Assembly (NCBI GenBank): GCA_951406725.2
Contig: OX597826.1
Coordinates: 42,346,001 to 42,410,000, forward strand
Reading direction: 5' to 3'
DNA: 64,000 nt
From: Octopus vulgaris
Lineage: Eukaryota
Part shown: positions 3,859 through 60,490 of the stretch, in pieces
Layout: the number at the start of each line of letters is the position of its first letter
How positions within the stretch are numbered: the first letter of the stretch is position 1
The notes under the pieces: generated by a model
Told to the model about the DNA's origin: nothing
Database searches by the model: none
Seen by the model: the letters and a program-made list of their open reading frames with translations, nothing else
Translations under genes and position numbers: made by a program

Positions 3859-4110
3859 TACGGAGATGTACTTGCATAGCAAGTGACTTGATCTGAGATC
3901 GTGTACTGGAACGAAAACAATTGCTGCGTGGAAGGTGTTTATAAGTTATTTAAGAAACACACAAAACCGTTAGATTCACTTCATCATTTAAATTTAATTT
4001 GTCAAAATATTTTCGTCGCTTTGAGACAGCAACCTGTTCACTGACAAAGCTTCGTGCAGCGATTTTGTGTGTTTCTTAAACGGCTTATAAACACCTTCTA
4101 CGCTGCAATT
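3859..4110 (-). mobile_element. Penelope-type terminal-repeat element (ORF-less) with short inverted copy; same family as 7584-7948
   Basis: Homologous to 7584-7948 and 63519-63714. The inverted segment 4063-4110 ends at the same GCTGCAAT boundary. Confidence 0.7.
3998..4048 (-). ncRNA. hammerhead ribozyme-like motif, G3:C8 variant
   Basis: Minus strand reads TTTGTCA-GTGAACA-G-GTTGCT gtctcaa AGCGAC-GAAA-ATATTT-TGACAAA, giving a 7 bp stem I, a 6 bp stem II and a palindromic stem III. Confidence 0.6.
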
Positions 4111-4200
4111 ATATATATATATATATATATATATATATATATATATATATATATATATATATAATATATTTGTGTATGTGTGCAATACATACATACATAT

Positions 4201-4497
4201 AGCATGGTTCAGTGGTTAAGGTGTTGCACTTACAATTGCGAGATCGTGGGCTCGATTCCCAGACCGGGCATTGCATTGTGCTCTTGAGCAAGGTACTTCA
4301 TTTCACGTTTCTCTGCGTTCATTTCGTACTCTGACAAGTGGCACTCGTTGCACCTGTACAGATAATATCGATTTAATGGAGCGAGTGAACTTATGAGTAC
4401 ACAAACATTTGATCACTATAAACAAATCATCTGTGCAGTTGTTCGATAAGAAATTGTCAAACCCTCGCACGTCGTCTAACGACGGGAGAGTCCATCA
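4201..4497 (+). mobile_element. SINE group C, diverged near-full copy
   Basis: A box TGGTTCAGTGG, B box GGCTCGATTCC and the shared body. The tail is shared with 9441-9662. Confidence 0.75.
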
Positions 4498-4587
4498 TAT
4501 ATATATATATATAAATATATATATATATATATATATATATATATATATATATATATATATATATATGTGTGTGTGTGTGTGTGTGTA

Positions 4588-5052
4588 AAATTAATATAAA
4601 CAGTAGATTGCAGTGTTTCACCAAAGAGGAGAATTAGAAATGTCACTAAATGCGAATAGGGTGTTAGGAAACACTTACATTGCAAGAAATAAGAGCTTCG
4701 TTGAAAACGTGTACACTAACAGGGACCATAATCGTCCGAAAAGTGCCGATCGAGAATTCCTAATACTGACGCGTCAGTTTCGGCAATTTCCGTTGCTTCA
4801 TCAGTTAAGTCAGCTCAACTTCGACTCTTTTCGGACTCGCTTCGCCATTAGTATTTATGTTTTCGTCATCTAGATATTTAGATGATTTAGCGATTCGCTA
4901 ATATGTCTATATAAAATTAATATAAATAGCAGTTTGCAATGTTTCAGCAAAAATGAGAATTACAAATGTCACTAAATGCGACTACAGCATTAGTGCGGTT
5001 TAGCTCTTATTTCTAGCAATGTAGGTATTTCCTAACACCCTAGTCGCATTTT
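4588..5052 (-). mobile_element. PLE-type partial tandem plus inverted terminal repeat
   Basis: Direct repeat 4588-4655 is similar to 4913-4981. Segment 5002-5052 is the reverse complement of 4648-4697. A hammerhead lies inside. Confidence 0.6.
4759..4809 (-). ncRNA. type I hammerhead ribozyme (C3:G8) with 14-nt palindromic stem III
   Basis: Minus strand reads CTTAA-CTGATGA-AGCAA cggaaa TTGCC-GAAAC TGACGCGTCA GTA-TTAGG. It has a GUA triplet and a single A10.1.C11.1 mismatch. Confidence 0.8.
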
Positions 5053-5439
5053 GGAACAGTGAAACTCGAAGTAGCTAAGGGTATAATTTATAGCATGTTA
5101 ATATTGGGTCAAAAACACCTTTGACTATTAAAAGTTTGAGGTTGCAAGCAGTACTCGAACAGTCATCTTCAGTAAACATCATCTACCACTAGGCCGAAGC
5201 AATCCTTTGGATTTATCTGCTCCGAGTTTAGAACAACATCCTTTGTGGCATTTCTCCGGCTCTTTACATTCTGAATTCAGATTCCCGTTCAGGAAAATGT
5301 GATCTTGGTCATTTATACTCATGGAAACCGGGTAACCGATAACCGGTCTTATGAGTCCAAGAGCTAAAGGAGAATTTTTAAAATTCAAATTCTAGTCTAA
5401 GTTTGATAATAAAATATTGATCGGTGTATTAAATAATCC

Positions 5440-5630
5440 TTTCTACTGATGGCACAAATCCTGAAATTTTCTCTTGGTGGAGTGGAACTAGTCGATTGCA
5501 TAGACCCCAGTGTTTCACTGGTACTTAATTTATCAAAGTCGACCTCGGCGGAATTTGAACTCACAACATCGAGGCAAACAAATTGCCGTTAAGCCCGGCG
5601 TGCTAACGATTCAGCCATCTTGCTGTCTTG
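5440..5630 (-). mobile_element. SINE group A, diverged
   Basis: AAAGTCGACCTCGGCGGAATTTGAACTC and CCCGGCGTGCTAACG motifs. Confidence 0.75.
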
Positions 5631-57079: not shown

Positions 57080-57240
57080 GGGCGGTGAGCTGGCTGAAAC
57101 GTTAGCACGTCGGGCGAAATGCTTAGTGGTTTTTCGTCTGCCCTTATGTTCTGAGTTCAAATTCCGCCGATGTCGACTTTGCTTCCATCCTTTCGAAGTC
57201 GATAAATTAAGTACCAGTCGCGTACTGGAGTCGATCTAAT
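57080..57240 (+). mobile_element. SINE group A, 3'-truncated
   Basis: GGCGGTGAGCTGGCTGAAACGTTAGCACGTCGGGCGAAATGCTTAG. Confidence 0.85.
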
Positions 57241-58199
57241 CTAAACATGTTATAATACTGAAAAAGAGAAGAAGCATATATATATATGTGTGTGTGTGTG
57301 TGTGTGTGTGTGTGTATTTATGTATACATATTTATGTATATACATAGCAGAAGTTTGTCATTTAAGTATATATGAGCATATCTAGGCATACAACTATATG
57401 CATGAGAATACATACATAAAACAAAATATATATACATCCATACATACGTACAGAAATACCCTGTTGATGTTGAAATTCCAACGAAGTAGCCTTGGATCTA
57501 GGTTAGAAATCAGCTTTTCCTCTATTGGTAAGAAATCTTGAAATAAAACTGAATGACATACATACATACATACATATATACATACATACATACATACATA
57601 CATACATACATACATACATACATACATACATACATACATACATACAATGACTAACTCGTATCAATGTGTGTTGGAGTACCGTGGGATACCTTTATTTTAT
57701 GTGGTTGGTAGTTTGCCGTCAAATTTCCTGTTACTGCAATATGTCATATGTATATTTATATGCAATATTCCTAAGAAAACGGTAAGAAAATGAAACTGAA
57801 GAAGAAAGTAACTAAATATTATTATTATTATAAATTTTATTTACAATCCATGATGTTAGAATTATAGCGGGTAGGTGTACAATTACGGATGATAGTGTAG
57901 TAGCCAAGTAAATATGCGCCGATTTGAAAATGAGTATTACAGACAATGATTATGTTGATAAACAAACTAATTTCGATCAAATGGGATGAAGAGATAATTT
58001 CGATCAAATCAGATGAAGAGATAAAATGAAACGTGACCTGAAGTTGCATGGATAACCCCGGATATCACTCAACTTTATTTAAGTCAGCGAATAATCTCAG
58101 ACTAAATGACAGAAATATTTGAGAAATGTTTCACTCAAAAGTTATAGATATTAATGTTGAAATTAGAAAGATATTTGAATTTTAGAGCAGTTTAAAAAG

Positions 58200-58390
58200 G
58201 TCCCCGGGTCTAGGAAAGAAGTATTCAGCCAATGCCCTCATCTAAAACGTTTCCTATTACAAATTTGGAATTCCCCATTCGTTGAATAGGCCTGTCACAG
58301 CCCCTTCGAAATTCACCACAGTGGGAGCCAATTTAAGGGCGATAACCTCGTCCCACGTGCAGCACGGACAATTATTTTTTGTTTACAAAC
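58200..58390. promoter_or_regulatory. candidate cis-regulatory cluster
   Basis: AGCCAAT at 58227 and 58326, GGAATTCCCC (NF-kB-like) at 58267, CACGTG at 58354 and TGTTTAC at 58380, in a GC-richer unique patch. Confidence 0.25.
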
Positions 58391-58857
58391 CAACTGACCG
58401 TTACGTATTTTAACTTCCTAACATATATTAATATATATATATATATATATATATATATATATATATATATATATATATATATATATATATATATATATAT
58501 ATATATATATATATACATATACATATACATATATATATATATATATATATATATATATATATATACACGCCTATATATAAACTTACACACATGCATATAC
58601 ACATACATATATGCATACATATATATACATACTCATATGCGTACATTGATAACTGCCATTAATGAACATCTGAACTGAATTGTAATGTTTTCCAATAATT
58701 GAAATCATGAAAAATCGTGACTGATATCTAGATTTACTTAATTTTAATATTCCTAGATACCTTTCTAACAAAAGCATGCGAAAATCGATTTAAAGGAAAT
58801 TTAATGCGAAAGCAATTAAAATATTTCTTTTGCTTTTATAAATATGTTTTTTATAAA

Positions 58858-59110
58858 GGTGCAAGGATGGCTCTATGGTTAAAATGCTTACTTTACAACA
58901 ATGTGGTTTCGAGTTCAGTTCCATTGCGTAAAACCTTGATCGAATGTATTCTACATTAGCCCCTTGCCGGCTATTAACTTCTGATTAAATTTGCTCGATG
59001 GAAGCTGTGTTGAGGACACCCGTATACATGTATATGTTTCTGTCTATATTTGCAACCCACCACCATCTCACAGTTTGATAACCAGTGTTGGTTTGTTCAC
59101 GTTCCTGTAA
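58858..59110 (+). mobile_element. SINE group B, highly diverged
   Basis: GATGGCTCTATGGTTAA..GAGTTCAGTTCCATTGCG..TTGATAACCAGTGTTGGTTTGTT. Confidence 0.6.
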
Positions 59111-59119
59111 ACAAACCTA

Positions 59120-60490
59120 CCGGTTCTCGAGAGTCGAAGTAAACGTCTTAGTGTTGGCAAGAGATGTGGTCTGATTTCTGGTTAATAACACGATGACTAT
59201 ATGGGTCCGAGAAGGAAAATTGTAAAGATACACCAGATTGTCTTCATTCAATTCCTTGAGTTGATAATTTGGTTGTATGGAATGAAGATGTTACTATATT
59301 TAGTCATATTTAATCAAATATTTCATCCATGAGTACCTAAGTTGACAGGTTTCCGTTTTCCCATACATTATCATCTATACCCGATTGATCAATATCTCCT
59401 CGTGTTACAGCTTTGCGATGTTTCTCTACCCTTATTTTGAGGGGGCGGCATGTTTTGCCTTTGTATAACCTACCACAGCTGAAGGGGATGGAGTACACGC
59501 AGTCTTTGGTCATATTCTCTTCTATTGGTGGTTTCACTCGAAGGTGTTGTATTACTCTTGAATACTGTCCTGATGTCATATGGACCGCATATCTTTTGAA
59601 TCTTTTCGGAGAGGCCTTTCACATAGAGTAGACAGACTATGGTCAGTTTATGGGGTTCATCCTCTCTTTCTTTATAACTGGAGTGGTAGTATGTTTTGGG
59701 GGTTGTTGTTGCTTAATAGATTGTTGCTTAGCTTGAACATTTCTTCGTGGTGTGTATCAGGATCGCTATCAAGAATCAAAATTTGAAGAAAACAGAAAAT
59801 GGAGAAGTACTGATGAACAACAATTGACTTACATCAATTAATATTTAATATTTGCTCGATGTTTTAGGCACTGAACAATCCTTCTCTTTACATTGTATGG
59901 ATGGTGGGAATTGAAGTTGAGGTATCGTCCAGTGAAGGTTGGCTTGCAGTATACGGATCTCCTGGATCTATACCTGGTGCGTGTTATTAATACGTCCAGG
60001 AATGCTAGCTGATTGTCTTTTTCCTTTTCCATTGTGGACTGTATGGATGGCTTTATTGAGTTCACATGATCTAACAGTACTTGGACATCTTCCAGGTGGG
60101 GCCAGAGTATAAAGGTGTCAACATATCGCAGCCATAGGGTTGGTTTTAGTGGTGTTGATCCTAAAGCCAAATTCTCAAAGTGTTTCATGTATATATTGAC
60201 TATTATCGGTGATAATGGGGAGCCTATTGCAAAACCCTCTTCTTGTCGATATATATTAGTGCCCATTCTGAAGTAGGCAGTTTCTACACAGAAGGTCAAC
60301 ATTTCCATCAAGTTTCCTATTGGTATACTAGTGCGTTCTTTTAAATCGGAAAAATACCTTAGGAATGAGAACCCATGTTCGAAATTCCCCCAGGACACCT
60401 GATGAAGGCTGGAGAGTACATAAGCTGAAACGTTGTCTTAACAACAAGCAAGATGAGGACAAATATCTGTCAAATGTAAATAAGGCAAAC
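59120..60490 (-). mobile_element. Penelope-like retroelement (RT + GIY-YIG, defective) joined to an inverted terminal repeat
   Basis: RT: YRQEEGFAIGSPLSP, WLRYVDT, LAFLDV, TGRYLNFNSHHP. EN: CVYSIPFSCGRLYKGKT..RVEKH. The plus-strand hammerhead-like GGACAC-CTGATGA-AGGCT..AGCT-GAAAC GTT at 60393-60439 lies beyond the 5' truncation. Confidence 0.9.

Follow-up and report, generated by a model that had tools for sequence, protein, structure and literature searches.

Hammerhead ribozyme folds with differing 3:8 core pairs in Penelope-like elements of Octopus vulgaris

A 64-kb stretch of the Octopus vulgaris genome (contig OX597826.1; hereafter the window, whose numbering is used for positions) contains a series of small hammerhead ribozyme motifs in which core positions 3 and 8 hold C-G, G-C, U-A or A-U. 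The genome has a size of 2.8 Gb and is rich in microsatellites. Judged from sequence, these motifs are probably hammerhead folds located in the terminal repeats of several families of Penelope-like elements, each family keeping one fixed Watson-Crick pair at 3:8, and their cleavage is likely to be slow and assisted by dimer formation or by protein. The odd cores are fixed at the level of the family and are not mutations private to single copies. Genome-wide searches in which positions 3, 7 and 8 could be any base returned 6,147 matches to the G family and 811 to the A families (AUGANUA); G3-C8 was present in 95 of the first 100 of the former, and A3-U8 in 95 of the first 100 of the latter. An earlier note on this DNA had suggested that separate Penelope-derived families had fixed covarying cores of their own, and had set against this the alternative of copy-private mutations in CUGANGA families. 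These counts exclude the alternative, the variant families having G3-C8, A3-U8 or U3-A8 fixed in place of a CUGANGA consensus, and the suggestion is borne out by the fixation counts, by linkage to reverse transcriptase (RT) and GIY-YIG sequences and by double changes between homologous families. The variant motifs of the window are listed below as predicted folds.

3998..4048, minus strand: G3-C8 hammerhead fold of an older subfamily; core GUGAACA at 4041-4035, G9.1, stem III AAUAUU, U17.
7725..7774, minus strand: G3-C8 hammerhead fold of a young subfamily; core GUGAACA at 7767; arm with the optional tail, ending near 7585.
7820..7869, plus strand: G3-C8 hammerhead fold; core GUGAACA at 7827; inverted arm without the tail, ending near 7950.
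63533..63583, plus strand: additional copy of the G3 family; core at 63540; private change of C8 to U, with upstream element sequence before it.
26442..26473, plus strand: A3-U8 hammerhead fold of an old family; core AUGAUUA at 26445-26451.
42802..42837, minus strand: U3-A8 hammerhead fold; core UUGAAAA at 42834-42828; 3' end of a Penelope fragment in (TA)n.
35656..35692, minus strand: second copy of the 42802 family; core at 35689; private U3-to-C and A17-to-G changes.

Fixation has been seen by several routes of selecting copies. When G-family copies were chosen by their flank (a downstream 25-mer with 4,234 matches, 81 copies being taken), GUGAACA was found in 60 of the 63 readable cores, and 25 of 30 copies chosen by an upstream motif had an intact G3-C8. 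The 30 best-scoring relatives of the 26442 family, a set that leans to the query, have A3 in all 30 and U8 in 27, and a set of the same kind for the 42802 family has UUGAAAA in 30 of 30. The G3-C8 pair is maintained across subfamilies that are about 85% identical and differ in loop II, and A3-U8 across two diverged families, with N7 in the A3-U8 matches being A or U depending on the subfamily. U4, G5 and A6, A9, G12, A13, A14 and A15.1, as well as U16.1, are retained in most copies of every variant family. At 26445 the closing pair of stem I is broken by a private G1.1-to-A change, most family copies having GAC. The G3-C8 copies share an extra G between A9 and stem II, a stem II of 5 bp, the palindrome AAUAUU and U17.

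Chance expectation was gauged on 60 evenly spaced 10-kb stretches of the genome (600 kb), using a strict descriptor with N3 and N8 free and 20 shuffles. The sample gave 30 matches, compared with 2.75 in the shuffles. Watson-Crick pairs at 3:8 account for 26 of the 30 (CG 16, UA 9, GC 1, AU 0), with seven of the 16 C-G matches belonging to one tandem array, and four matches are non-Watson-Crick, where the shuffles yield about two that are non-paired. A-U is absent from this sample, the A3-U8 families being rarer. The C3-G8 pair is formed solely in the tertiary-stabilised fold (PMC3884650). Since the 3:8 pair exists only in the active fold, its maintenance likely reflects selection on that fold.

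Derivation of the G3-C8, A3-U8 and U3-A8 motifs from Penelope-like elements is supported by their surroundings. The G3-C8 motif lies about 1.0 kb downstream of an open reading frame (ORF) with RT and C-terminal GIY-YIG-type motifs, and a motif downstream of a C-terminal GIY-YIG-type domain was recorded in 30 rows for G3-C8, 15 for A3-U8 and 18 for U3-A8, overlapping loci being retained in these counts. The product of the G3-C8 family ORF (P0001) is without any Pfam match; it carries YVDD and VYQI..YIGET motifs and aligns (E 2e-8) to P0002, the ORF product of an element of a second lineage, which has a Pfam match to GIY-YIG and one to RVT_1 just below the cut-off. A CX2-5CxxC finger, a trait of Neptune and Nematis, precedes the endonuclease in both (CQSNCAVC in P0001, CGRPNCGIC in P0002). 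The A3-U8 and U3-A8 motifs sit downstream of ORFs of the second lineage (P0002 type), and an upstream match to such an ORF was detected at three of 30 loci for relatives of the 26442 family and at four of 30 for those of the 42802 family. Copies are inserted in (TA)n, frequently with an inverted 5' arm, and some G3-C8 copies have a terminal tail of about 58 nt that others lack; such targets, inversions at the 5' end and optional tails are features of Penelope-like elements (PMC8557442). The window motifs are single or inverted, with none of the short head-to-tail units that mark retrozymes, and tandem units have been observed in a sister family (see below) and not in the G3-C8 family itself. 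Homology to the start of the sister ORF puts the beginning of the G3-C8 ORF about 92 nt past N3, and so places the hammerhead outside the coding sequence. As a separate observation, the 3' untranslated region of the G3-C8 element (about 1 kb; L254:1870-2830, minus strand) is mostly (TACA)n-like, and the element thus spreads microsatellite-like DNA.

Comparison of homologous families has revealed changes at both positions of the pair. An endonuclease tree, which includes no reference elements and omits L034 as too short, has two deep lineages. In lineage A, the G3-C8 family stands against a sister family with an ORF of 1,311 amino acids, 57% identical, whose motif CUGAUGC has C3-G8. In this sister, C replaces A9, stem III is non-palindromic (AGAACU) and intact 1,311-residue ORFs occur in 4.6-kb tandem units; its motif was located as follows.

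L390:6385-6435 (G000:C19), minus strand: hammerhead of the A9C sister family, found also in L391 and L392.

In a third family of lineage A, with 2,263 exact matches, 24 of 30 loci are U3-A8, two are C-A and four are truncated or diverged; a direct ORF link for this family was not found in these 30 loci, save for one inverted match of 51%. All three families carry the extra G and U17, have a stem II of the form GUYRC/GYRAC and begin their ORFs with sequence that can be aligned. These homologous families, linked by ORFs with 57% identity or by leaders and N-termini that align, have G-C, C-G and U-A and also differ by compensatory changes in stem II. Inverted arms account for the C-A calls within the G3 cluster, which are artefacts. 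In lineage B, the U3-A8 and A3-U8 families fall on opposite sides of a weak branch (42/58), which does not resolve a single origin of A3-U8. A Watson-Crick 3:8 pair is present in all 10 families found at at least two distinct loci, plus two further families.

Metagenome relatives of the G3-C8 ORF gave 31 motif matches in 75 loci: 15 are C-G, 14 are U-A, one is a weak A-U on the opposite strand, one is A-G and none is G-C, and the nearest relative with a motif (50% identity) has C-G. With its relatives being C-G or U-A, the G-C pair looks derived and local. Loose contig ends in sequencing runs of two other organisms contain the G3-C8 core, a weak sign that it may occur in related species. The A3-U8 pattern had 0 matches in viral contigs. 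One U3-A8 minimal hammerhead recurs in many of the metagenome Penelope relatives (L415-L452); its palindrome is AAUU and it has U17.

The remaining hammerhead sites and associated element pieces of the window are the following.

4759..4809, minus strand: C3-G8 hammerhead fold; core at 4804; 14-nt palindromic stem III.
13414..13516, minus strand: C3-G8 hammerhead fold with a long stem II; core at 13511.
44145..44236, plus strand: C3-G8 hammerhead fold with a long stem II; core at 44150.
60396..60438, plus strand: C3-G8 minimal hammerhead; core at 60399; inverted copy adjoining a Penelope RT remnant.
59340..60311, minus strand: broken Penelope RT and endonuclease remnant adjoining the 60399 motif.
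48137..48180, plus strand: degenerate CUGAAGA site; core at 48142; without U16.1, palindrome or matching stem I.
Near 3866 to about 4109: short Penelope copy bearing the 4041 motif, with its end near 3866 and its inverted 5' piece reaching about 4109.
62345..63285, plus strand: broken 5' part of a G3-C8 family ORF, with 86% identity to P0001 over 28 amino acids at its end.

The last of these has an internal deletion before the 63540 motif, and the 4804 site has an A-C mismatch beside the core, unless the A is counted as an extra base 9.1. The type I layout (stem I, core, stem II, GAAA, palindromic stem III, N17) that the earlier note had assigned to ten sites is present at nine, while 48137 is not an intact hammerhead. 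The sites themselves exist, at numbers which mark motif ends and not core starts; the first inventory had overlooked the extra G after A9 and the U17 of the G3-C8 copies, as well as the copies at 63540 (plus strand) and 35689 (minus strand). Hammerhead families are absent among the best 150 of 440 Rfam matches to the window, those listed being microsatellite noise, and repeat-finder output is likewise dominated by microsatellites. Further remnants of Penelope-type endonucleases lie at 17750-18416 (minus strand), 47464-47772 and 48733-49110 (both plus strand), with no intact hammerhead tied to any of the three. Four broken ORFs were read by eye from their translations and are taken by us to be LTR-retrotransposon (long terminal repeat) RT/integrase-like (18681-20213, plus strand), like the 3' end of a long interspersed nuclear element (20456-20905, plus strand), a Tc1-like transposase (37293-37610, minus strand) and a mariner-like transposase (49806-50435, minus strand). 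Copies of a 72-nt repeat, which is probably one part of a short interspersed nuclear element, are dispersed at 1075-1146, 3061, 19683, 25663, 33907, 61279 and 61489.

Folding of single copies recovers stems I and II for 7827 and 42834, and not for 4041, 26445 and 60399; in the predicted fold of 7827 both stems are present and the core is open (z -2.2). Stem III contains palindromes, and folding of two copies pairs this stem for the U3-A8 copies and the A3-U8 copy of the window, leaving it open for another A3-U8 copy (L248). Dimer pairing through stem III is favoured by folding for CCGG-type stems and not for AAUAUU. A rule by which N3 and N17 avoid pairing was considered and rejected, since U3 is found together with A17. 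Any of the four bases occurs at N17 in the old A3-U8 family (window 26442-26473; L031-L060); a G there is normally unfavourable since it pairs with C3, a pairing from which A3 would escape.

The ends of the 81 G3-C8 copies bear on how the elements are copied. Relative to the core, 40 end at -22 to -19 and four reach past -26. A further 12 map to -7, which is probably due to slippage of the alignment along a run of T; at a single locus, two copies have their ends at +33/+34, also in a run of T. Ends at -22 to -19, with no peak at the cut site, indicate that these copies were made from uncut RNA. Among 21 copies with AGATGC, 11 have a preceding G where the element has C or T, and position -22 is likely a capped transcription start. 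With CTAAC..YAG at this place, the fixed 5' end also resembles a 3' splice site; among the contig joints listed none crosses it, and the extra G favours a capped start, neither being proven. The 5' end of the G3-C8 copies (L255-L324) lies in an initiator-like TCAG/TTAG context, and most copies are only about 140-200 nt in length.

A mode of action can be proposed on this basis. The G3-C8 transcript would start 22 nt upstream of the core and be capped; the hammerhead would then be part of its 5' leader, with about 57 nt between cut site and ORF start, and the full transcript would carry a hammerhead at each end, the two able to pair via stem III. Reverse transcription would begin at either of two downstream sites, with or without the tail, mostly on uncut capped RNA, and insertion would be independent of cleavage. 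Cleavage, by dimers or with the help of the element protein, may then be a slow side step that, for example, cuts tandem read-through RNA into its units or takes off the cap. Folding of the inverted pair at 7725/7820 would give a long hairpin, and this pair is a by-product of insertion; it cannot form a sense-sense dimer, because each strand holds one sense copy only.

Several known systems resemble the octopus motifs. Minimal type I hammerheads are known from Penelope elements, one Schistosoma family having U3-A8 (Cervera and De la Pena, 2014, PMC4209133). They share with the octopus motifs the palindromic stem III, a base after A9, frequent U17 and a location in terminal repeats; U17 and the extra base 9.1 are also frequent in the supplement to that work. 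Its 56 listed representatives are C3-G8, U3-A8 or, in one case, U3-G8, with no G3-C8 or A3-U8 among them, unlike in octopus. Natural core variants described by Perreault et al. (2011, PMC3088659) have U3-A8 covariation and weak two-pair stems II, as in octopus; the available text of that paper, figures and supplements aside, names no natural G3-C8 or A3-U8, whereas octopus has both. The earlier note went too far in one respect: natural U3-A8 is already published, Penelope elements included (PMC3088659, PMC4209133), and no natural G3-C8 or A3-U8 was found in the published text searched, figures and some key papers being outside that coverage. Both appear to be unreported in nature, although novelty is not proven.

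G3-C8 is known as a product of the laboratory. C3G/G8C hammerheads carry the same swapped tertiary pair and are partly active, but these are monomeric, loop-stabilised mutants, unlike the natural octopus motifs (PMC9901934, PMC3884650, PMC8495972), and in a deep scan C3G/G8C restored activity (PMC9901934). In the Poseidon element PAc of Anolis, cleavage requires the element protein and is partly rescued by C3G/G8C (Frangieh et al., 2024, PMC11167929), G3-C8 being an engineered rescue there and the natural state in octopus. PAc has two reverse-transcription starts giving the tail and an uncut RNA template, as inferred for octopus, and its cleavage mutants insert normally, with no reads terminating at the cut site; its ORF begins inside the hammerhead, whereas the octopus G3-C8 fold lies upstream of the ORF (PMC11167929). 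Non-LTR retrozymes of animals have type I hammerheads in Penelope-related repeats, as do the octopus motifs, but form short tandem arrays, where the motifs of the window are dispersed 3' fragments of autonomous elements (10.64898/2026.07.22.740005). A retrozyme-like array does exist elsewhere in the genome (L121:3082-4512, plus strand, with two further minus-strand copies), with units of about 359 nt that each carry a C3-G8 hammerhead, and a motif resembling it (L193) carries U3-A8. A bolder proposal, which we make only tentatively, is that octopus Penelope elements hold the first natural G3-C8 and A3-U8 hammerheads, all four pairs being used, and that their weakened cores (swapped 3:8, U17, A9C) may act as a tuned, protein-gated timer that keeps the capped RNA whole, available to translation and reverse transcription, until the element protein is bound.

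A number of observations weigh against hammerheads with slow, assisted cleavage. None of the 81 G3-C8 copies ends exactly at +36, the predicted cut site, and two-copy folding leaves the AAUAUU stem III of G3-C8 unpaired. Minimal Penelope hammerheads are weakly active in vitro even with C3-G8 (PMC4209133), and among double changes of the 3:8 pair in the deep scan the G-C swap alone gave rescue, the rest being low and A-U giving none (PMC9901934). In two U3-A8 families position 17 is A; its pairing with U3 could trap the site, by the logic of a trap described in PMC3884650. The A9C sister family is young and abundant with many intact ORFs, so a full core is unnecessary for spread. Shared ancestry of the families leaves about three independent double changes.

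These points lend some weight to a rival in which the fold is retained as a structure, bound by protein or shaping the leader, with G3-C8 and A3-U8 lacking a useful cutting rate. The origin of copies from uncut RNA, the high activity of the A9C sister family, the normal insertion of anole cleavage mutants with no reads at the cut site (PMC11167929) and the missing A-U rescue (PMC9901934) are all in keeping with it. Nonetheless, U4, G5, A6, G12-A15.1 and U16.1 are kept along with the 3:8 pair, a pair specific to the active fold, and C3G/G8C partly rescues a Penelope hammerhead (PMC11167929); we regard this rival as rather unlikely, though it is the strongest. It is improbable that the motifs are decayed hammerheads whose complementary changes at 3 and 8 arose by chance in master elements, with no present selection. 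Inserted copies evolve neutrally, so that fixation within a family mirrors the master copy alone, and just about three independent changes are involved; yet the pair is Watson-Crick in all 10 multi-locus families plus two more, and G3-C8 is stable across subfamilies about 85% identical and A3-U8 across two diverged families. Least probable of all is that 3:8 pairing is a side effect of some other constraint, for instance codons or a DNA promoter element. The core lies 22 nt past the probable start site, and downstream promoter elements are located at about that distance from a start site. The ORF overlaps the hammerhead in the anole element (PMC11167929), but the octopus ORF start by homology falls well after the core, and a DNA element would leave both the Watson-Crick covariation and stems I to III unexplained.

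Hammerhead folds of Penelope-like families that likely still cleave slowly remain our preferred reading, and it bears on how such ribozymes are counted and studied. Censuses based on CUGANGA miss thousands of copies per genome, and a published 'HHR core' (hammerhead ribozyme core) screen relied on CUGANGA. The natural series of C-G, G-C, U-A, A-U and A9C, present in young families with intact ORFs, suits tests of the purpose of these ribozymes. Should G3-C8 and A3-U8 prove to be new to nature, evolution would have repeated the laboratory swap that proved the 3:8 pair of the active state, and, if the reading is true, Penelope hammerheads would be selected for their catalytic fold despite insertion via uncut RNA.

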